This document shows positions 3,629 to 56,982 of a stretch of 64,000 nucleotides of DNA, one piece after another (position 1 is the first letter of the stretch; each line of letters opens with the position of its first letter). The translations under genes and the position numbers were made by a program. Under the pieces are notes generated by a model that was not told the DNA's origin, ran no database searches, and was given only the letters and a program-made list of their open reading frames with translations. This DNA comes from a virus, in the IMG/VR virus record IMGVR_UViG_3300020429_000529, positions 326,762-390,761 of that record, one strand, 5' to 3'.

Positions 3629-3702
3629 TCCTCAGTAGCTCAGTTGGTAGTAGCGAATGGCTGTTAACCATTAGGTCGCTGGTTCGAGCCCAGCCTGAGG
3701 AG
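3629..3702 (+). tRNA. tRNA-Asn(GUU)
   Basis: tcctcag/ctgagga acceptor, anticodon arm aatgg-CUGUUAA-ccatt, T-arm gctggTTCGAGCccagc. Confidence 0.85.
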
Positions 3703-5815: not shown

Positions 5816-5861
5816 TAACCAAGCAGTATCGAGGGACGCTTCGATGTCTGCTTTTTGATTG

Positions 5862-5983
5862 CCCTGTGGCGGAATGGTAGACGCACGGAAGACATTCCGA
5901 TTCGCCGTTCGAGTCGGCAAAGTAGGCGGATGCGCTGAAATCAAAGGTAGAATGTAGGTTCGAATCCTACCAGGGCAACTTGT
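5862..5983 (+). other. elongated tRNA-like element with Leu-type D-arm (tggcggaatggtagacgc) and two T-arm-like hairpins
   Basis: Acceptor tgccctg/cagggca pairs across 122 nt; internal gccgTTCGAGTcggc and gtaggTTCGAATcctac. Confidence 0.3.
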
Positions 5984-6150: not shown

Positions 6151-6287
6151 GTCAACGTGGTGTAACTGGCAACACACTTAAACGCCTTTCGCCATACCAT
6201 ACCTGTCTCGGGATCCCCGACAGGTCGAAGGATGGAAGGTTAACCTCTTGCAAAGGAGAGCTTCAGGTTCGAATCCTGACGTTGGCA
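6151..6287 (+). tRNA. insert-containing tRNA-like gene (137 nt); anticodon arm atypical (ctct-UUGCAAAGG-agag)
   Basis: Acceptor gtcaacg/cgttggc, D-arm same as the tRNA at 6075, then an insert of about 65 nt sharing aacgcctttcgccataccata...gtcgaaggatggaaggttaac with 6291-6421, T-arm tcaggTTCGAATcctga. Confidence 0.45.
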
Positions 6288-6290
6288 TTT

Positions 6291-6421
6291 CTCAGCGTGG
6301 TGTAATGGTAGCACAGTAACAAACGCCTTTCGCCATACCATATTTCGTAAGAAGTCGAAGGATGGAAGGTTAACATTCCTCTGTAAAAGGAAAGGTTCGG
6401 GTTCGAATCCCGACGCTGGGT
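6291..6421 (+). tRNA. insert-containing tRNA-Tyr(GUA)-like gene (131 nt)
   Basis: Acceptor ctcagcg/cgctggg, D-arm, about 55-nt insert paralogous to the one in 6151-6287, anticodon arm ttcct-CUGUAAA-aggaa, T-arm tcgggTTCGAATcccga. Confidence 0.5.
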
Positions 6422-6425
6422 TTTT

Positions 6426-6537
6426 GGTGCCGCACGAGGAATGATCCCAGAAGCGCGCGATCCCAAGATGAAGGAGAGGCCTCTCTTGATTCGAGGGTGA
6501 TCATGGGATGGAGGTTCGATGCCTCCCGGCGCTGTTT
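6426..6537 (+). other. elongated tRNA-like element (acceptor ggtgccg/cggcgct, T-arm ggaggTTCGATGcctcc; possible anticodon loop UUGAUUC)
   Basis: 112 nt with an internal palindrome gagaggcctctc; structure only partly resolvable. Confidence 0.3.
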
Positions 6538-7124: not shown

Positions 7125-7550
7125 ATGGGCTCATACGCCTACGCTCGACACCTTCTGACTTCGCAGAAGAAGATCAGACTGCCGCTCGTCATCTGGCAGC
7201 ACGGTAAGAGCTTCCGCAGGGAGCAAGATCAAGTCACCAAGAACATGAGACTCAAGGAGTTCTATCAGCTTGAGTTTCAGATCATGTTTGCGCCGACCAC
7301 GGCAAACGACTACTCGATCAAGCTCATTCCTGCGATTCGGCGTATCATCGAGTTGTTCATCGGTCCCTGCCGAGTCGAGCCGTCCGACAGACTGCCCGAC
7401 TACGCAGAATGGACTCAAGACATTGTGAGAGAAGCGAACGACATGGAAGTCTGTTCAGTTTCTCTCCGTCACGACTTTGATCTTGCAAAGGTCTTGGAGG
7501 TGGCGATCGGAACTGATAGACTTGTTTACAACCACTTTGATTGGCTGTAA
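7125..7550 (+). CDS. class II aminoacyl-tRNA synthetase motif-2 fragment (GlyRS/HisRS-like), 141 aa
   Basis: GKSFRREQDQVTKNMRLKEFYQLEFQIMF resembles class IIa motif 2 (GKxFRNE...REFxQxExE); no in-frame ATG upstream. Confidence 0.45.
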   Translation: MGSYAYARHLLTSQKKIRLPLVIWQHGKSFRREQDQVTKNMRLKEFYQLEFQIMFAPTTANDYSIKLIPAIRRIIELFIGPCRVEPSDRLPDYAEWTQDIVREANDMEVCSVSLRHDFDLAKVLEVAIGTDRLVYNHFDWL

Positions 7551-16324: not shown

Positions 16325-17068
16325 ATGATAGACTTTGAACGAGGCGCAAAAGCCACAGGTACAAAGTTCTACTTTCTGACAGGCAACGATGCCCTCAGAG
16401 AGTTGCAACTCTGTATGAAGATGATCGAGTTTCATGCCGAACGAGGATACGAGCCGGTCATTCCGCCGTATCTCGTCAACAAGAAGACATGCGAGATGGC
16501 TGGTATCCTTCCTCGCTTCGAGGGAGACTTCTACGAGACGCAGGACGGGTTCGTTCTGATTCCGACCGCAGAAACGCCCCTCGTCGGTTTTCGCGCCAAC
16601 GAGATCATCCCCGAAGAAGAACTCCCGCTCAAGTATGTCGCCTTCTCGCCCTGTTTCCGCAGAGAGGCTGGCGCAGCGGGGAAGAAGGACAAGGGCCTCA
16701 AGAGGGTCCACCAGTTCCACAAGATCGAACTGTTCGTCATCTGCAAGCCCGAAGACTCGGAGCGGCTCCATGAGGAGATGACGGCTCAGGTCGAAGAGCT
16801 TCTTGATGAACTGGGCGTCGAGCATCGAAGGATCGAGCTTGACGAGAACGATCGTCCCCCAACGTCGGCCAAGACGTATGACATCGAGGTTCGAGCAGGA
16901 GAAGAATGGCTTGAAGTCTCTTCGATCTCGAACACGCTGGATCGGCAGGCAAAGCCCGCTCAGATCCGTTATCGGCCACGACCGCAGGCGAAACCCGTCA
17001 AGTGTCATATCTTGAACGGTTCGGGTGTCGCGCTGCCTCGGCTGACTCTTGCGATGTTGGGTGGATGA
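16325..17068 (+). CDS. seryl-tRNA synthetase catalytic core (class II), lacking the N-terminal tRNA-binding arm
   Basis: GAAGGAGAC RBS; GTKFYFLTG...GYEPVIPPYLV, FSPCFRREAGAAGKKDKGLKRVHQFHKIELF (motif 2) and the GSG motif region; the ORF starts about 25 nt after a tRNA. Confidence 0.75.
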   Translation: MIDFERGAKATGTKFYFLTGNDALRELQLCMKMIEFHAERGYEPVIPPYLVNKKTCEMAGILPRFEGDFYETQDGFVLIPTAETPLVGFRANEIIPEEELPLKYVAFSPCFRREAGAAGKKDKGLKRVHQFHKIELFVICKPEDSERLHEEMTAQVEELLDELGVEHRRIELDENDRPPTSAKTYDIEVRAGEEWLEVSSISNTLDRQAKPAQIRYRPRPQAKPVKCHILNGSGVALPRLTLAMLGG

Positions 17069-19742: not shown

Positions 19743-20705
19743 ATGCTTGGGGAAAATGTTCGAAAGATTCCTTTCCACCCTATACCTACAAACCCCATCG
19801 CAACAAACGCCAACACCAAAAACCTGTTCGATAGCGATCCGACAGCCGAGAAAAAGCCAACCCTTAGAAAGACAACAGAAGGCAAACAGCCCTTTGTTGC
19901 GTATTGGCTCATCGGAGGAGCCTCAAACAATGCCAGCCTGAGGCGCATTGGTTGGGGAGTCGCAACAAGAGGTTGGAACGAGTTCATACAAGAGAAAATC
20001 GTTCCTCAAATTCAGGTCGGAGTTCGCAGATTCCATCTTCACAACCCATTTGGCCTTGACGCATCAGGCCCTATGCCAGCCGATCAATACATCAAAGCTG
20101 TTGAGCAGGGACTTGATCTTGTCTATGGCAACTTTGTTGAAGCGTGGAAGCCAATCGCCGACAATCCGAACTTTGAAGTTACAGCCTACCTTGGCAAGTT
20201 GCCTGATTCGGCTATCTTCAATGAACTGATCGGGTTGAAAGATTCATCAGGCTGGATGAAGAGACTGACCGAATCATATCAGGCTGTCATGGAAGCGGGA
20301 ATGTCTATTGGCTTTGACGCTATGGCAATTGCAGAAGACAGCGATGAATCGTATCTCGCTTACGACTTGATTGACAAGCTTTGTCAGCTAACGGGTCGCA
20401 GAACGTACATCGAGGCGACTCCGAAGAAGAGAGATGAGCATCTGACGGGCAGAAACATCTTTGTCATTGATAGCACATGGAGAACTCGCCTGACTCTCCC
20501 CGCTTTTGCGCATGACGAGGATCTATCAGGCGAGATCGTAAGACTTGCTGTCAAGCCGAGATCAGAAACAAGGACTACGCTTGAGTGGTGTCTTGGTATC
20601 GGAGAAGAGATTCTTGCCGATGGTCACACCTTCTGCCCCTCTCAAGGGTGGCAGCTTTCGATGGATGAGTTGGCGCATCTGCTTCGGATGTTGAGGATTC
20701 TTTAG
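19743..20705 (+). CDS. hypothetical protein, paralog family A
   Basis: GGAGGA RBS; RRFHLHNPFGLDASGPM / VTAYLGKLPD motifs shared with 4043, 38401 and 39861. Confidence 0.7.
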   Translation: MLGENVRKIPFHPIPTNPIATNANTKNLFDSDPTAEKKPTLRKTTEGKQPFVAYWLIGGASNNASLRRIGWGVATRGWNEFIQEKIVPQIQVGVRRFHLHNPFGLDASGPMPADQYIKAVEQGLDLVYGNFVEAWKPIADNPNFEVTAYLGKLPDSAIFNELIGLKDSSGWMKRLTESYQAVMEAGMSIGFDAMAIAEDSDESYLAYDLIDKLCQLTGRRTYIEATPKKRDEHLTGRNIFVIDSTWRTRLTLPAFAHDEDLSGEIVRLAVKPRSETRTTLEWCLGIGEEILADGHTFCPSQGWQLSMDELAHLLRMLRIL

Positions 20706-21046
20706 TCAAGGTCAGGCCAAGTTTGAAACGGCAAATCATGTTCGGTGCGAAGTTCGTTGATCCAGTCTCTATGAGTGCCGGTGATTCGCCAGAACTTGCG
20801 TAGCTGAGCATCTTGCGATGCGTCTTTTTCTGTGTTGTCTACAATGGCATCGAGCGTTTGTTGCATGAGGGCCATGTCGGTACGAAGATCAGCCGCATCA
20901 TCGTTGAGGTCGTTGATTCTGGTGAGGGACCATGTAAAGAGTCCGCTGAGAATGAGAATAAGCAGCCCGAGCAAGGACTGGATGACTTGATCTGGTTTCA
21001 TTGCCATTTGAGAGACGCCTCCGTATGAGTTATTGGGATCACTCAT
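20702..21046 (-). CDS. hypothetical membrane/coiled-coil protein
   Basis: 114-aa minus ORF with one hydrophobic segment; weak RBS. Confidence 0.4.
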   Translation of the reverse strand: MSDPNNSYGGVSQMAMKPDQVIQSLLGLLILILSGLFTWSLTRINDLNDDAADLRTDMALMQQTLDAIVDNTEKDASQDAQLRKFWRITGTHRDWINELRTEHDLPFQTWPDLD

Positions 21047-21081
21047 ACTTGGGCAGGAAAACTGAGAATCCCTTCTGATAA

Positions 21082-21106
21082 GGCCGGGTGCCCGAGCGGT
21101 TAGGGG
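21082..21106 (+). other. tRNA 5' fragment (acceptor ggccggg + Tyr-type D-arm cccgagcggttagggg)
   Basis: Acceptor strand pairs with the 3' fragment at 21974-21980 (cccggtc); no anticodon or T-arm follows. Confidence 0.45.
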
Positions 21107-21181
21107 TTGGATGAAGGAATGATAGTCAACTAATCGAATACCTATAAATCGTCGATATACACGATAGATAGGAGTTCGATT

Positions 21182-21859
21182 ATGAGACAGAAAACCAAGG
21201 AGCGAAGTCAGGCTATCGATCTTCGCAAGCAGGGTAAATCGCTATCAGAGATTCAAGAAAAGCTTGGCGTTGCTCGCAGCACCGTTAGCGTTTGGGTTAG
21301 AGATGTTGAGCTTTCTGATGAACAGAGAAACAGGCTCGATAGCAGAAAACCAGCAAAGCCCGAGGCTTTTTATCAGCAAAGATCTGAAGCATATAGAGCC
21401 AAGCGACAAGAGTATCAACAGCGAGGTAGGGATCTTGCTCGCAAATTTGCATCTGATCGATTGTTCATAGCAGGATGCATGCTTTATTGGGCAGAAGGGT
21501 CAAAGGCAAAGAACTCCGTCATATTCTGTAACTCAGATGCAGACATGATGAGAATGTTCATTCGGTTTCTCTTGAAATACTTCGATGTCACAAAACATGA
21601 CATTCGAGCAAGATGCAACTTCTATACGGATATTCATTCTCAGGATGAGGTAGAGTCTTATTGGCAATCGAACCTTTCATTGCCTGAAAGTTCTTTCACC
21701 AAAAGCGTTGTTGATTACAACAATCGATACAGCAAGAGACAGGGCAAGCTTGAGTACGGAACCTGTTCAATTTCAATACATAGTACCGAGCTTGTTCAGA
21801 TTATCTTTGGTTCTATTTCTGAGATCGCTGAAATAGAAGGCGAGAAATGGTTAGACTGA
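21182..21859 (+). CDS. HTH + LAGLIDADG-like homing endonuclease (tentative)
   Basis: N-terminal helix-turn-helix (SLSEIQEKLGVARSTVSVW); IAGCMLYWAEGSK resembles a single LAGLIDADG motif; lies between the two tRNA fragments. Confidence 0.45.
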   Translation: MRQKTKERSQAIDLRKQGKSLSEIQEKLGVARSTVSVWVRDVELSDEQRNRLDSRKPAKPEAFYQQRSEAYRAKRQEYQQRGRDLARKFASDRLFIAGCMLYWAEGSKAKNSVIFCNSDADMMRMFIRFLLKYFDVTKHDIRARCNFYTDIHSQDEVESYWQSNLSLPESSFTKSVVDYNNRYSKRQGKLEYGTCSISIHSTELVQIIFGSISEIAEIEGEKWLD

Positions 21860-21860
21860 T

Positions 21861-21945
21861 GCCCGTATGGCCGAGTGGCGAAGGCGGCGGATTGCAAATC
21901 CGCTGAGGCTTGACCTCCACGTTGGTTCGAATCCAACTGCGGGCT
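21861..21945 (+). tRNA. Ser-like class II tRNA body with anticodon GCA (Cys codons)
   Basis: gcccgta/tgcgggc acceptor, Ser-type D-arm ggccgagtggcgaaggc, anticodon arm gcgga-UUGCAAA-tccgc, 17-nt variable arm, T-arm gttggTTCGAATccaac. Confidence 0.6.
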
Positions 21946-21981
21946 TTGAAGACTACGAGGGTTCGAATCCCTCCCCGGTCT
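21946..21981 (+). other. tRNA 3' fragment (T-arm gagggTTCGAATccctc + acceptor cccggtc)
   Basis: Pairs with the 5' fragment at 21082; no anticodon arm upstream. Confidence 0.45.
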
Positions 21982-21988
21982 TTTGAAT

Positions 21989-22062
21989 GGCCTCTGGTCC
22001 GCTTGGAGCGGGACTCGGTTGCAACCCGAGTTGAATATCTGGTTCGAATCCAGCAGGGGTCT
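21989..22062 (+). tRNA. tRNA-Cys(GCA)
   Basis: ggcctct/aggggtc acceptor, anticodon arm ctcgg-UUGCAAC-ccgag, T-loop TTCGAAT. Confidence 0.7.
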
Positions 22063-22064
22063 TT

Positions 22065-22340
22065 ATGAGCGAAGTTCCAGAAGAATATCGTATCTCGCCT
22101 GAAAAGGCGGAAGAGATGGTCGATGACGCCATCCGAGAGGGCGACCTTGAGGGCTTTTACGAGGCAGTTTGCCCATGCGGAGAGATTTGCGGCATGCATT
22201 TTCACTCTGTCATTGGCGGCGAGCCTCCGAAGCCGAGCAAATACATCGCTTGCCCTTCTTGTCATCGGGTAGGCTTCAAGGATGGCATCGAGTGGAAGTA
22301 TGTCCCTCCGATCTTGGAGCAGGACGATGAGGTTGCATGA
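22065..22340 (+). CDS. Cys-rich hypothetical protein
   Basis: CPCGEICGMH...CPSCH motifs; starts 3 nt after tRNA-Cys. Confidence 0.5.
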   Translation: MSEVPEEYRISPEKAEEMVDDAIREGDLEGFYEAVCPCGEICGMHFHSVIGGEPPKPSKYIACPSCHRVGFKDGIEWKYVPPILEQDDEVA

Positions 22341-22615
22341 ACAGCGTCATCTACGAGACCTCTGAGGGCTACAGGACGCACGTTGGCATTCAGGACGGCA
22401 CAGAGTATGGCGGTCCCTTTCCGACGCTCACAGAGGCTCAGGACGACTGCTGGAAGACAGAGAAGATCATGAACGGAAACGACATCGACGTTGATGCGAT
22501 TCCGATTATGCGCGGGTCTCTTGGAGATAAAGGCCCCGACAGAATCCCGGGAGAACTGTCGGACGCCAAACGAGAGGGTTCGAATCCCTTGACCCGCTTT
22601 ATGAGACCGATTTGA
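22337..22615 (+). CDS. hypothetical protein (3' end contains a tRNA-like T-arm/acceptor sequence)
   Basis: ATGA overlap; the C-terminal EGSNPLTRF is coded by gagggTTCGAATcccttgacccgc, which pairs with gcgggtc at 22512. Confidence 0.3.
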   Translation: MNSVIYETSEGYRTHVGIQDGTEYGGPFPTLTEAQDDCWKTEKIMNGNDIDVDAIPIMRGSLGDKGPDRIPGELSDAKREGSNPLTRFMRPI

Positions 22616-22616
22616 T

Positions 22617-22688
22617 GTGGGTGTAGCTCAGCGGTAGAGCGCCAGCTTGCCAAGTTGGATGTCGAGGGTTCAAATCCCTTTACCCACT
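22617..22688 (+). tRNA. tRNA-Gly(GCC), second copy
   Basis: gtgggtg/tacccac acceptor, anticodon arm ccagc-UUGCCAA-gttgg, T-arm gagggTTCAAATccctt. Confidence 0.8.
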
Positions 22689-22692
22689 TTTC

Positions 22693-23091
22693 ATGGACAA
22701 ATGCGAATGTCAAGAACCTGATGCTTGCTACTATCCTGCAATCAACGAGGATGGTTGGAAGTGTTTGAACTGCATGAAAACCTTGGGTTTTCGACCAGAC
22801 CTTGATCGAGAGTTCATTCACGAGAAGGTCGAGGGCATCATGCAGGATATGCAGATGTCTAAGCTTGCATACTTCTCAAACAGTACCGAAGGGCATATGA
22901 TCGCAGCGCAGGTTGCGAGCGAATGTTCTCGTCAGAATCTCTACGATCAGGCGACGATCATTCTTGAGATCATGCGGGTCATTCAGCCAGATAAATCCCT
23001 GTTTTGGCAGTCAAAGGCCTCTGGCGCTATGGCGGAAACTTTAGATGTTGCAAAACGGGAGGAAGTTTGCGCTGATTGGTGGGAGAACTGA
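22693..23091 (+). CDS. hypothetical Cys-rich protein
   Basis: 132 aa; CECQEPDACYYP...CLNC. Confidence 0.55.
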   Translation: MDKCECQEPDACYYPAINEDGWKCLNCMKTLGFRPDLDREFIHEKVEGIMQDMQMSKLAYFSNSTEGHMIAAQVASECSRQNLYDQATIILEIMRVIQPDKSLFWQSKASGAMAETLDVAKREEVCADWWEN

Positions 23092-34767: not shown

Positions 34768-35118
34768 GGGGGTGATATGGAATCGACCGAATGATGTAGG
34801 TTGATGATCGCGAGTCGGGGATGCATGCTCAGGCCCCGTTATCAAGGTATGCACAAATTAGTTGCCAACAGCAACACCCTCCGCATGGCTGCTTAATCAG
34901 CCTGCTCGCAACCCGAAGACACCGATATTCGGGAAGCGAAAGACCATCGGGTTAGGCATCGTCTTCAACGCCTGAGGATTCGATGACCGAAACTAAAAGG
35001 GCTGCTCCGAAGGTCATGCTGTCGCTGGCAGGACTGAGGCTAAGATAAATCAGCGAATACACTCGTAGAGGTCTCTGCTGACCCATTCGACACCGGGGTT
35101 CGAGTCCCCGCACCTCCA
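34768..35118 (+). ncRNA. ssrA: tmRNA (ssrA), tag reading frame ANSNTLRMAA*
   Basis: The 5' end GGGGGUGAUAUGGAAUCGACCG resembles the tmRNA consensus GGGGCUGAUUCUGGAUUCGACGGG. The 3' end ccgggguucgaguccccgcaccucca pairs with the 5' acceptor with G3:U70. The internal ORF gcc aac agc aac acc ctc cgc atg gct gct taa gives the tag. Confidence 0.8.
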
Positions 35119-35126
35119 CTTCAGAA

Positions 35127-52535: not shown

Positions 52536-52826
52536 ATGAGGGAAACGATTGTTGTCAGCGGCGAACCTGATGCAGAGCAGAAGCGCTGTTACGATTGTTT
52601 CTACATGCGAGGGGCCTGTTCTTGGTGGTGCAAAAACGAAGAAGCCATCAAGTTCAGAGGAACCAGAATCCCTGGAGTGAGGGAATGCAAGTTCTGGAAA
52701 CCGGCTCGAAAAGTGTCTGATCTCAGCATGGGCGAACGGTTAGCCTTCCATCTTGACGTACTTGGGCTTGGTTTTGTGCCACTGACGATCGAAGCGTCGG
52801 AGCAAACAGAGACAACGCCTCAATAG
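52536..52826 (+). CDS. Cys-rich hypothetical protein
   Basis: 96 aa with CYDCFYMRGACSWWC; its TAG stop is the U8-A9-G10 of the suppressor tRNA. Confidence 0.4.
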   Translation: MRETIVVSGEPDAEQKRCYDCFYMRGACSWWCKNEEAIKFRGTRIPGVRECKFWKPARKVSDLSMGERLAFHLDVLGLGFVPLTIEASEQTETTPQ

Positions 52827-52888
52827 CTCAATTGGCAGAGCAGCGGGCTCTAACCCCGCGGTTGGGGGTTCAAGTCCCCCTTGAGGCA
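52817..52888 (+). tRNA. amber suppressor tRNA (anticodon CUA, reads UAG)
   Basis: gcctcaa/ttgaggc acceptor, D-arm tagctcaattggcagagca (same as tRNA-Lys(CUU) at 3359), anticodon arm gcggg-CUCUAAC-cccgc, T-arm gggggTTCAAGTccccc. Confidence 0.8.
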
Positions 52889-56323: not shown

Positions 56324-56916
56324 TGGCGGTCTTGACTGAACAACGGCTCAAGGAGCTTCGTCTGGTTTCTAATCGAGTTGTACGAGCGAAGGACTTTGCT
56401 CGTACAGCCCATCAGGGGCAGACAAGAGATGACGGCGCGGAATACTTCTCTCATCCGTCGAGAGTTGTTGATCGAGTTCGAGGTTACTCGGGCGACGAGA
56501 ACACCATCTGCGCCGCATGGTTGCATGATACGATCGAGGATTGCGAGGGCGTTACTTCGGAGATGCTGCAGGATCTCTTCGGTTCTCAGGTTACGAGCAT
56601 CGTTGAAGAACTGACGCTCCCTGAGATTCCTTCTAAGATCAGTCCTCCTCATCGGTGGCAATACAAGACGGATCTGCTCGTCAAAAAGGCAGGCACGATG
56701 TCTAATGAGGCGAAGCTGGTCAAGATTTGCGACCGCATTGACAACTTGAATTCTGCGATGACGGATTGGAAGCCCCGTCGTCTTGTCCGTTACGCTATTC
56801 AGGGCTGCAAGATGCTGGAAGCTATGCGCCCTCTCGATCCGATGCATCAGCAAGCTGCAAACGACCTGCTCTTTCTGATCGCTCAGATCTTGATCGAAAA
56901 CCAACAGTCCTCGTAG
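56323..56916 (+). CDS. HD-domain phosphohydrolase (RelA/SpoT-type HD)
   Basis: ARTAHQGQTRDDGAEYFSHPSRVV...AAWLHDTIED motifs; its TAG stop is the tRNA's U8-A9-G10. Confidence 0.7.
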   Translation: MAVLTEQRLKELRLVSNRVVRAKDFARTAHQGQTRDDGAEYFSHPSRVVDRVRGYSGDENTICAAWLHDTIEDCEGVTSEMLQDLFGSQVTSIVEELTLPEIPSKISPPHRWQYKTDLLVKKAGTMSNEAKLVKICDRIDNLNSAMTDWKPRRLVRYAIQGCKMLEAMRPLDPMHQQAANDLLFLIAQILIENQQSS

Positions 56917-56982
56917 CTCAGTATGGCCAGAGCCGCCGACTCTAAATCGGTGTGAGCGCGGGTTCGAGTCCCGCCGAGGACG
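56907..56982 (+). tRNA. amber suppressor tRNA (anticodon CUA), second copy with a different body
   Basis: gtcctcg/cgaggac acceptor, D-stem gctc/gagc, anticodon arm gccga-CUCUAAA-tcggt, T-arm gcgggTTCGAGTcccgc. Confidence 0.75.

Follow-up and report, generated by a model that had tools for sequence, protein, structure and literature searches.

How did a tRNA gene of a large phage come to lie in two pieces on either side of a protein-coding gene and a second, complete tRNA gene, and can the outer tRNA still function? This question was raised by positions 21082 to 21981 of the window, the 64,000-nucleotide stretch of viral DNA analyzed here. The window belongs to a marine phage of about 500 kb, and the locus is situated inside a tRNA gene array, in which 47 tRNA/tmRNA genes were called around the ORF using ARAGORN. 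The presence of a tmRNA gene in the window indicates a bacterial setting. Permuted halves of a tRNA-Lys, both broken in the anticodon loop and bounded by complete tRNAs, were observed at 2166-2272, and other scrambled tRNA pieces were found in the window without such an ORF nearby.

In the preliminary description, two tRNA fragments had been noted with an ORF (21182-21859) and a tRNA (21861-21945) between them. All of these elements were recovered at those positions, and the locus was annotated as follows.

21082..21111, + strand: 5′ remnant of a class II tRNA gene (from the sequence and from alignment to the intact tRNA-Ser(cga) of contig L119 and tRNA-Leu(taa) of contig L033)
21082-21088: acceptor strand GGCCGGG of the 5′ remnant
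21089-21090: U8/G9 of the 5′ remnant
21091-21105: D-arm of the 5′ remnant, CCC-GAGCGGTTA-GGG
21106-21111: end of the 5′ remnant, G26 followed by TTGGA (possible 5′ strand of the anticodon stem)
21112..21181, + strand: left end of the cassette and 5′ UTR of the ORF, overlapping the hairpin at 21131-21182
21182..21859, + strand: 225-aa ORF with an HTH and a LAGLIDADG-like domain, putative homing endonuclease
21861..21945, + strand: nested complete class II tRNA (ARAGORN; Rfam tRNA, 59.5 bits)
21946..21981, + strand: 3′ remnant of the same class II tRNA gene (from the sequence; an orphan T-arm, uncalled by ARAGORN)
21946-21956: variable-arm end of the 3′ remnant (TTTGAAGACTAC)
21957-21973: T-arm of the 3′ remnant, GAGGG-TTCGAAT-CCCTC
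21974-21980: acceptor strand CCCGGTC of the 3′ remnant, followed by the discriminator T at 21981

The 5′ remnant is broken at approximately tRNA position 32, and the outer tRNA is devoid of the 3′ strand of the anticodon stem, the anticodon loop, and most of the variable arm. The earlier statement that no anticodon arm remains was essentially correct, apart from TTGGA, which may be a leftover 5′ strand. The segment between the remnants, referred to as the cassette (21112-21945, approximately 840 bp), is tightly packed, with only about 75 nt being neither ORF nor tRNA. The nested tRNA begins 1 nt past the stop codon of the ORF, and the 3′ remnant begins directly at its end (21945/21946). It is a good tRNA, of class II as described previously; it has a long variable arm, anticodon GCA, and discriminator U, and represents the putative cargo or replacement tRNA of the cassette. 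The GC content of the ORF/cassette is 42.8%, compared with 51.5% for the window. Upstream of the ORF, a hairpin (21131-21182) with 22-nt arms, 82% complementary according to a repeat search, buries the Shine-Dalgarno sequence GGAG and the AUG. Its RNA fold was calculated at −23.3 kcal/mol (z = −4.35), and equally stable folds were obtained for 0/200 shuffled sequences. A GGxGTTCGAxT-like motif precedes the ATG in homologues too. A sigma-70 promoter scan yielded no + strand promoter for the cassette.

Whether the two remnants stem from a single gene was judged from their pairing and from intact relatives. The acceptor pairing, previously called perfect over 7 bp, does involve all seven positions (7/7), of which six are Watson-Crick pairs and one is a G-U pair. 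The chance of a 7-mer pairing with CCCGGTC at one fixed position is about 5e-4 (our own calculation), and the pairing 7-mer stands exactly before U8-R9 and the D-arm; upstream of the ORF, the 5′ remnant is the sole 7/7 partner having a D-arm. Intact tRNA-Leu(taa) genes in phage contigs L033, L118, and L120 have identical first 9 nt, T-arm, and acceptor, with the whole 24-nt 3′ stretch being identical. Similarly, the intact tRNA-Ser(cga) in phage contig L119 has identical first 9 nt, T-arm, and acceptor, and is identical over the 21 nt searched. The occurrence elsewhere of intact tRNAs with identical acceptor and T-arm indicates that both remnants derive from one gene. Under a strict partner test, consisting of 7/7 acceptor pairing, U8R9, and a D-arm, a same-locus partner was found for 3/10 orphan 3′ fragments versus 1/180 cross-locus controls. 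Hence, the view that both pieces once formed a single tRNA gene was supported, by intact tRNAs with the same ends and by pairing beyond chance. Also supported is the view that what disrupted this gene was an insertion containing a complete tRNA together with an ORF of homing-endonuclease type.

In the ORF product, an HTH at the N terminus (residues 4-42) is followed by a long helix and, at the C terminus, by a LAGLIDADG-like domain. The HTH reported earlier was borne out by a match to Pfam HTH_23 (32.8 bits). Residues 99-106 read C-M-L-Y-W-A-E-G (LYWAEG motif); L101, W103, E105, and G106 were invariant in 65/65 aligned sequences, and the ORF is intact, with every invariant residue. In the predicted model (pLDDT 93.8), helix 93-105 carries the motif at its C-terminal end and has the form of a LAGLIDADG-type helix ending in a conserved acidic residue and a glycine. 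WhiA has lost the acidic residue and the glycine at the end of its LAGLIDADG-like helix. When the family profile was compared with the PDB, the sole non-HTH matches were to the second LAGLIDADG motif of I-DmoI, at E-values of 0.24-0.65, below significance. Residues 90-225 were covered by no Pfam, NCBIfam, or PHROG model at E ≤ 1, only HTH models being returned for the protein, and significant sequence matches were limited to the HTH domains of transposases and regulators. With Foldseek, no significant structural match emerged in either the PDB or BFVD. The earlier designation of the ORF as LAGLIDADG is weakly supported, no curated model matching the C-terminal domain.

Compared with I-DmoI, I-CreI, I-CeuI, intein endonuclease domains, and the domesticated WhiA, the protein stands apart in having one LAGLIDADG-like domain together with a long linker helix and an HTH at the N terminus. 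It also differs from LAGLIDADG endonucleases and WhiA in its predicted non-canonical strand order, with sequence similarity below significance: the predicted order is alpha-beta-alpha-beta-alpha-beta-beta-alpha, whereas the textbook order is alpha-beta-beta-alpha-beta-beta-alpha. Pfam gave no GIY-YIG match in the ORF, tblastn no second copy in the window, and Pfam no other endonuclease gene among ten larger ORFs of the array. The putative homing endonuclease belongs to a new protein family without a curated model, and we infer that it is an active, probably homodimeric DNA endonuclease.

The nested design recurred in three other phages: a homologue, together with a complete tRNA for the same amino acid, was located between matching 5′ and 3′ tRNA fragments.

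L011: outer tRNA Gly(CCC), break following nt 34; contents, tRNA-Gly(ccc) plus the ORF
L017: outer tRNA Gly(GCC), break following nt 32; contents, tRNA-Gly(tcc) plus the ORF
L029: outer tRNA Val(xAC), 3′ part from nt 35; contents, the ORF plus tRNA-Val(tac)

In all four loci, the breaks lie at anticodon-loop nt 32-35. L011 and L017 retain an almost intact outer tRNA, whereas those of L029 and of the window have decayed, a gradation expected for pseudogenes of different ages. An ORF was thus found between matching tRNA halves in four independent loci, against 1/180 control pairings. The same design in unrelated phages points to a probably undescribed selfish element targeting tRNA genes and not to a spliced or split tRNA. 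Linkage to tRNA genes extends to the family at large: 19/19 homologue loci from IMG/VR were in or beside tRNA arrays, seven of them with the tRNAs on the opposite strand, and in 79/80 bacterial homologue loci a complete tRNA was found approximately 10-160 nt from the ORF. Association on either strand argues against co-transcription. The family numbers about 400 members, and homologues are patchily distributed across phyla and phages. In many Gaiellaceae, the gene occupies a conserved syntenic position adjoining tRNA-Gly(tcc), which could equally well fit a domesticated DNA-binding protein, like WhiA.

Two alternatives would leave the outer tRNA functional. The 840 bp could be a self-splicing (group I/II) or otherwise excised intron, as the terms intron-like and conditionally split had suggested. 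Bacterial tRNA genes have their group I introns in the anticodon loop, the site of the present break, and LAGLIDADG genes are found in some of these introns; one example is the cyanobacterial tRNA-Arg(CCU), with a group I intron in the anticodon loop and a LAGLIDADG gene of PF03161 (PMC13011429). The present locus resembles these introns in its insertion point and in the LAGLIDADG-type ORF inside, but has no ribozyme core, incomplete exons, and a full tRNA gene inside the insertion, and its ORF matches neither PF03161 nor any curated LAGLIDADG model. The group I intron core sought on the advice of the preliminary description was not detected: Rfam returned no group I/II core at E ≤ 10 in 20700-22800, no intron at gathering score in the whole window, and no intron at E ≤ 0.1 in L011, L017, and L029. 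The small part of the insert outside the ORF and the tRNA, and the different degrees of outer tRNA decay, unexpected under selection for splicing, also speak against an intron. An ARAGORN intron search did propose a tRNA-Arg(tcg) with an 813-nt intron. This model was rejected because it places the start of exon 2 within the T-loop of the nested tRNA, so that it borrows the T-arm from there, its variable arm being poor, and because the same option fuses neighboring tRNAs, producing six obvious chimeras and, for half of arbitrary joins, a tRNA of shifting identity. The two exons do not together encode a complete tRNA, and the joined remnants folded no better than shuffled sequences (z = 0.05), without a tRNA fold. 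Very little probability is therefore left to splicing, and the lack of an intron core, the missing anticodon arm, and the failure of the joined pieces to fold as a tRNA mark the outer tRNA as a dead remnant. The same observations bear on a functional split tRNA or tRNA-like RNA, whose halves would be freed by processing of the nested tRNA and, held together by acceptor-stem pairing, would act jointly like the split tRNAs of Archaea. Here, as in L029, the 3′ piece follows the nested tRNA without a gap, so that its 5′ end would be set by 3′ processing of the nested tRNA; the acceptor halves pair at all positions, and the permuted tRNA-Lys halves are similarly bounded by complete tRNAs. In the split and permuted tRNA genes of Archaea and of red and green algae, all nucleotides are encoded and bulge-helix-bulge splicing is used (PMC3218864, PMC3978253). 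The remnants share with them the separation of the 5′ and 3′ parts of one tRNA and the break at the anticodon loop; unlike them, they have no anticodon arm and no splicing motif, and the virus infects bacteria. The absence of the arm precludes any decoding function of the joined remnants. Beyond the acceptor stem, there is no complementary leader or trailer, and no inverted repeat connects the sequence downstream of 21111 with that upstream of 21946; nothing sets the 3′ end of the 5′ piece, and the equivalent outer tRNAs of other phages have decayed at different places. Like splicing, a split tRNA is judged very improbable.

The remaining alternatives concern the nature of the insert. The ORF may not encode a nuclease at all, being instead a WhiA-like, tRNA-gene-associated DNA-binding regulator, in which a domesticated LAGLIDADG fold is combined with an HTH, or a recombination-directionality/transposase-like factor, with the fragments resulting from ordinary recombination among paralogous tRNA genes of the dense array. 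Such a role would fit the restriction of significant matches to HTH domains, the Gaiellaceae synteny, and the scrambled tRNA pieces that occur elsewhere in the window without the ORF. The invariance of E105 and G106, the association with tRNA genes on either strand, the repeated position between matching halves relative to the controls, the GC content of the ORF, foreign to the window, and its patchy distribution all argue to the contrary, and we regard a non-nuclease as unlikely, at something like one chance in a handful. An integrase-type island or prophage-like insertion with duplication of an attachment site would accord with the classic role of tRNA genes as integration sites and with the partial tRNA at each end of the insert. 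However, no integrase or recombinase domain was detected in the insert using Pfam, neither a tyrosine or serine recombinase fold in the ORF nor direct att repeats bordering the insert were observed, the ends are complementary 5′ and 3′ parts of one tRNA instead of direct repeats, and the tRNA is not reconstituted, making this the least probable of the explanations considered.

Alleles free of the cassette were searched for in several ways. An exact 18-nt 5′ pattern matched only unrelated GC-rich coding DNA in IMG/VR, and a gapped pattern specific for the intact allele had no match in JGI metagenomes. Intact tRNAs for Leu and Ser that share the ends were retrieved with a looser pattern, yet these are different genes. 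Reconstructed empty-site patterns for L011 and L017 retrieved nothing new, the anticodon arm of the nested tRNA was absent from IMG/VR, and the flanking ORFs 19743-20705 and 22065-22340 identified no relatives of the phage in IMG/VR. The comparison with an uninterrupted allele in related genomes, proposed earlier, consequently returned no such allele for this phage in IMG/VR or JGI metagenomes. The absence from these searches of a cassette-free allele for this phage, L011, and L017 weighs against the reading favored below and leaves insertion polymorphism hypothetical. The phage occurs in the datasets ERZ17089788, ERR868458, and ERR2752162/3. Six other contigs of the same phage were identical over 20700-22700, except for three substitutions in L005. 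These fall outside the cassette, and all recovered copies are identical across it.

The reading favored here, which we consider probable though with considerable reserve, is that a free-standing homing-endonuclease cassette with its own tRNA occupies a broken class II tRNA gene and is functionally like T4 SegB. The protein would cut tRNA genes in the anticodon-loop region, and a class II tRNA gene of the phage array would have been cut in the DNA encoding the anticodon loop. The break would then have been filled by the mobile cassette of approximately 840 bp, comprising the 5′ UTR with its RBS-hiding hairpin, the endonuclease gene, and the complete tRNA. The enclosed tRNA may be a cleavage-resistant substitute, offsetting the loss of the target tRNA. 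Spread would proceed by double-strand-break repair (homing), in which the outer pseudogene remnants could provide the homology arms for copying the cassette to an intact allele.

SegB is a free-standing GIY-YIG homing endonuclease inside the T4 tRNA cluster (PMC2330249); it recognizes a tRNA-gene motif and drives co-inheritance of neighboring tRNA genes (PMC2330249; PMC8421152). As for SegB, the present putative endonuclease gene is free-standing in a phage tRNA array, outside an intron or intein, and neither Rfam nor Pfam detected an intron or intein signature at the ORF. The proposed working principle is the same. However, the GIY-YIG fold of SegB is unrelated to the HTH plus LAGLIDADG-like architecture, making the cassette protein an analogue and not a homologue. 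In addition, SegB recognizes a T-psi-C stem-loop motif, whereas the breakpoints here are in the anticodon loop. The location differs too: SegB is intergenic, while the cassette, its activity being predicted, is embedded in the remains of a destroyed tRNA gene and contains an entire tRNA.

More tentatively, and with doubts that outweigh our confidence, these HTH plus LAGLIDADG-like proteins may define an undescribed, widespread class of mobile elements in bacteria and huge phages, in which an endonuclease gene travels with a complete tRNA gene. Such an element would target a tRNA gene for the same amino acid, cleave it in the anticodon-loop DNA, insert itself there, and compensate for the lost gene with its own cleavage-resistant tRNA. 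It might be a major force duplicating, replacing, fragmenting, and even permuting tRNA genes in phage arrays, with the permuted tRNA-Lys halves as a possible by-product.

Large phages carry big tRNA arrays, the origin and turnover of which are poorly understood. Two recent reports indicate that phage tRNAs counter tRNA-cleaving host defenses and that SegB can amplify such loci (PMC10264068; PMC13096335). If the proposed reading is true, a second, unrelated endonuclease family, nearly always adjacent to a tRNA gene and moving with a tRNA, would provide a concrete mechanism for the exchange, replacement, and breakage of tRNA genes in phages and bacteria. It would also account for orphan tRNA halves, which annotation programs overlook or wrongly report as genes with introns. 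The family, if active, would be a source of new DNA endonucleases with long targets, the natural targets, tRNA genes, being highly conserved.

The window belongs to a contig of ~498.6 kb, and identical sequence was recovered from several marine metagenomes. ARAGORN detected 46 tRNA genes and one tmRNA gene in the window, all on the + strand and nearly all within the first 27 kb; most of the tRNA calls were backed by Rfam. With 46 tRNA genes and a tmRNA on one strand, the region resembles a tRNA array from a very large bacteriophage. Two tRNAs with a CTA anticodon (52817-52888 and 56907-56982; amber suppressors, labelled 'Pyl' by ARAGORN) and the tmRNA gene (34768-35121, tag ANSNTLRMAA) hint that TAG codons may be read or suppressed by the phage. 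Two ORFs within the array matched the class II aminoacyl-tRNA synthetase core (PF00587), 16325-17068 with E 3e-27 and 7125-7550 below threshold (E 1.8e-6, 28.6 bits vs a cut-off of 29.3).

The broken tRNA gene, referred to as the outer tRNA, and the elements enclosed by it were as follows.

Features of the split tRNA locus (window positions)
21082-21111, +, outer tRNA 5' piece: acceptor GGCCGGG, U8 G9, D-arm CCC/GAGCGGTTA/GGG, G, TTGGA
About 70 nt, leader between the 5' piece and the ORF
21182-21859, ORF of 225 aa
21861-21945, nested tRNA: 85 nt, class II, complete, anticodon GCA
21946-21981, +, outer tRNA 3' piece: TTTGAAGACTAC, T-arm GAGGG/TTCGAAT/CCCTC, acceptor CCCGGTC, discriminator T

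Sequence, ORF and tRNA calls confirmed the coordinates and layout of the split locus as given in the preliminary description. The acceptor strands of the outer pieces were paired at 7/7 positions (six Watson-Crick pairs and one G-U). A 318-kb IMG/VR contig carries an intact tRNA-Leu(taa) whose 3' end is identical to the 24-nt 3' end of the outer tRNA, and this Leu tRNA likewise begins with GGCCGGGTG. Using a gapped pattern search, the same Leu tRNA was found twice more in JGI metagenomes, and an intact tRNA-Ser(cga) was recovered from a 37-tRNA array (L119), its D-arm GCCGGAGCGGTTTAACGGC being closest to GCCCGAGCGGTTAGGGG of the window. As intact Leu and Ser tRNAs share the ends of the outer pieces, the outer gene was formerly a class II tRNA, Ser-, Leu- or Tyr-like. 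Alignment showed that it has lost the loop and the 3' stem strand of its anticodon arm, along with most of the variable arm. Very probably, the two fragments are the non-functional remains of a single tRNA gene that was disrupted when the cassette inserted.

The same design was looked for by scanning for T-arms outside called tRNAs, where the next 7-mer had to find a pairing partner of 7 nt on the upstream side of the ORF, and this partner in turn had to precede U8-R9 and a D-arm. Besides the window, the scan picked out three phage loci (L011, L017 and L029).

Order of elements in the three other phage loci
L011: tRNA-Gly(CCC) 5' part to nt 34, 20 nt, complete tRNA-Gly(ccc), promoter-like TTGACA/TATATA, ORF, 5 nt, 3' part from within the anticodon through CCA
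L017: tRNA-Gly(GCC) 5' part to nt 32, complete tRNA-Gly(tcc), ORF whose stop codon directly adjoins the next element, 3' part (GCC onward)
L029: acceptor and decayed D-arm, about 75 nt, ORF, complete tRNA-Val(tac), 3' part beginning ACAA-GGAGG (nt 35 onward of the Val anticodon)

The gene order of L029 is that of the window. The strict pairing test was positive for 3/10 within loci (4/10 if L011 is counted by eye) vs 1/180 cross-locus controls. Across the window and the three loci, breaks fell at anticodon-loop positions 32-35, the broken tRNA and the complete tRNA enclosed by it shared their amino-acid class, and the cassette edges fell where the ORF or the enclosed tRNA ends. Outer tRNAs ranged from nearly intact (L011, apart from the break; L017, lacking U33 only) to heavily decayed. 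TGAAG occurs at both cassette junctions of the window (21112-21116 and 21947-21951), and the junctions of L011 likewise share 5 nt, TTCAT (about 2819-2823 and about 3680-3684); these repeats could be microhomology, target duplication from insertion, or chance. Also in L011, 200 nt within the tRNA array (2403-2602) matched the bacterial RNase P RNA class A model end to end, at 61 bits and E 1e-16, below the gathering score of 100; this may be a minimised phage-encoded RNase P RNA.

The ORF family was nearly always linked to tRNA genes. Relatives lay in or beside tRNA genes in 19/19 IMG/VR loci, with the tRNAs on the opposite strand in seven of them, so the link is at the DNA level rather than through co-transcription. 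Three large-contig homologues, checked singly, had the same linkage. With each species represented by a single genome, relatives are encoded at 381 candidate loci; 80 of these were fetched, and a complete tRNA was situated within about 10-160 nt of the ORF in 79. The remaining locus (L104) is truncated by the end of its contig. We estimate that a randomly placed gene in a bacterial genome would lie this close to a tRNA well under 1% of the time.

Placement of tRNAs relative to the ORF by group
Gaiellaceae and other Actinomycetota: tRNA-Gly(tcc), 22-113 nt upstream, mostly 31-50
Chloroflexota: tRNA-Val(tac), 12-64 nt downstream
Armatimonadota: tRNA-Gly(tcc), 10-19 nt downstream
Thermoleophilia-type contigs: tRNA-Glu(ttc), on the strand opposite the ORF

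At one further locus (L025), an orphan 5' tRNA fragment, GCCCCCATAGTTTAGTTGGCTAGAACATCCGT, was located at about 2907-2940, ~70 nt upstream of the homologous ORF; a 3' partner was looked for and none was found. In a Thermoleophilaceae locus (L093, about 2225-2400), the ORF is followed by a tRNA 5' part up to the anticodon loop CTTCAA and then by structured sequence that is intron-like by eye, in which Rfam called no intron at E ≤ 0.1.

The only Pfam match in the ORF was HTH_23 (residues 4-42), and PHROGs and NCBIfam matched the HTH alone. Homologues formed >170 clusters of about 225 aa at 35-48% identity, and W38, G82, L101, W103, E105, G106, N117, W161, G193 and G210 were invariant in a 65-sequence alignment. 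The AlphaFold model was confident (pLDDT 93.8); Foldseek returned no significant match for it. Against PDB sequences, the sole non-HTH matches of the family profile were to the second LAGLIDADG motif of I-DmoI (E 0.24-0.65), and helix 93-105 ends in an invariant ...LYWAEG, which has the shape of a LAGLIDADG motif. We describe the domain as LAGLIDADG-like; membership of that family is plausible, the fold assignment is weak, and we infer nuclease activity. At 42.8%, the GC content of the ORF was below that of the window (51.5%) and of its neighbours (49-54%). A predicted hairpin with 22-nt arms (-23.3 kcal/mol, z -4.35) takes in the Shine-Dalgarno sequence and the AUG of the ORF, which would fit tight translational control of the kind known from other phage homing endonuclease genes. 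Many family members (window 21170-21184, L019, L021, L022, L025 and L031) carry GG(A/G)GTTCGA(T/A)T right before the ATG, i.e. a Shine-Dalgarno followed by a motif identical to the T-loop of a tRNA; within the window this stretch makes up the 3' arm of the RBS-burying hairpin.

Other unusual tRNA-like genes were noted in the window. A tRNA 3' half (2166-2203; TTA-GGCAA-AGGTC-GAAGG/TTCGATT/CCTTC-TGCATCA) starts directly after the tRNA-Arg(acg) discriminator, and ~35 nt past it a 5' half (2240-2272; GATGTA-TA-GCTCAATGGTGGAGC-A-TTGCC-ATTT) ends directly ahead of the first nucleotide of tRNA-Ala(cgc). Both halves are single-copy in the window, and joining them 5'+3' produces a canonical tRNA-Lys(UUU)-like cloverleaf; their order is circularly permuted, with the break in the anticodon loop. 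This could be a captured fragment, set free when tandem Lys genes were cut at two anticodon-loop sites in the DNA, or a genuine permuted gene, with processing of the tRNAs on either side generating its loop ends. Default ARAGORN missed tRNA-like genes at 5860-5979, 6153-6287, 6291-6421 and 6427-6535, with good acceptor, D and T arms and an extra hairpin of ~40-75 nt between D-arm and anticodon arm; the insert AACGCCTTTCGCCATACCATA...GTCGAAGGATGGAAGGTTAAC is common to two of them, whose anticodon loops contain GCA and GTA. They may be tRNAs with five arms, tRNAs interrupted by a non-canonical intron, or another kind of gene. Three unusual genes have anticodon GCA: 21861-21945, with U73 and the long variable arm of class II; 21989-22062, with tRNA-Sec as best Rfam match (29.8 bits, below threshold); and 6153-6287, with the extra arm. 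The tRNA-like sequence 22512-22597 has a good T-arm and a 7-bp acceptor but a 13-nt 'anticodon' loop; it falls within a mechanical ORF (22337-22615), its sole Rfam match is tRNA-Sec (16.5 bits), and it holds two of the three substitutions of contig L005 (22570, 22596).

The insertion had been proposed to be either intron-like or a conditional split of the tRNA, or else a disruptive homing event. The former was not supported: Rfam found no group I/II intron or other ribozyme in 20700-22800 (E ≤ 10), and no intron match in L011, L017 or L029 (E ≤ 0.1); the insert minus ORF and nested tRNA leaves only about 75 nt; and the outer pieces, directly joined, folded no better than shuffled sequence (z 0.05). 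With long introns allowed, ARAGORN called a 'tRNA-Arg(tcg) with an 813-nt intron', which was rejected, exon 2 beginning within the nested tRNA T-loop and the variable arm being badly paired; the same setting gave six obvious chimeras fusing adjacent tRNAs, and tRNAs of shifting identity in half of 540 arbitrary joins. The outer tRNA with its insert is therefore neither an intron-bearing nor a split tRNA, and the graded decay across loci is that of pseudogenes of different ages, not of a gene still needing splicing. The homing alternative gained support from the origin of the pieces in one gene, the recurrent nested design and the tRNA-linked ORF family.

An endonuclease gene in a tRNA cluster is an already known kind of element. 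Its closest known functional counterpart is SegB, a GIY-YIG enzyme whose gene lies in the tRNA cluster of phage T4. The 27-bp site of SegB includes the conserved T-psi-C motif of tRNA genes, and the enzyme causes its own gene and the tRNA genes around it to be inherited preferentially (PMC2330249; also PMC8421152 and PMC13096335). Endonuclease-bearing group I introns are rare in bacterial tRNAs (12/333 introns; PMC13011429) and need a ribozyme, whereas the cassette is without one. Because full-text literature searches yielded no description and the family has no curated model, the ORF protein family, its near-obligatory pairing with tRNAs across bacteria and huge phages, and the tRNA-inside-broken-tRNA design appear to be undescribed.

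The stable position of the ORF beside tRNA-Gly(tcc) in many Gaiellaceae is also compatible with a domesticated, WhiA-like DNA-binding role of its protein. The cassette was identical in all copies of this phage recovered, and pattern and relative searches of IMG/VR and JGI metagenomes found no empty-site allele for this or the analogous phages. Overall, we somewhat favour the cassette being a free-standing homing-endonuclease element that carries a tRNA. Its putative enzyme would recognise and cut tRNA-gene DNA around the anticodon loop, and the cassette, by occupying the cut site, would shield the carrier genome from recutting. Remnants of the target tRNA and flanking DNA would provide the homology by which, during co-infection, an intact allele receives a copy of the entire cassette. 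The tRNA inside the cassette would substitute for the one lost, possibly the reason why the element is tolerated.
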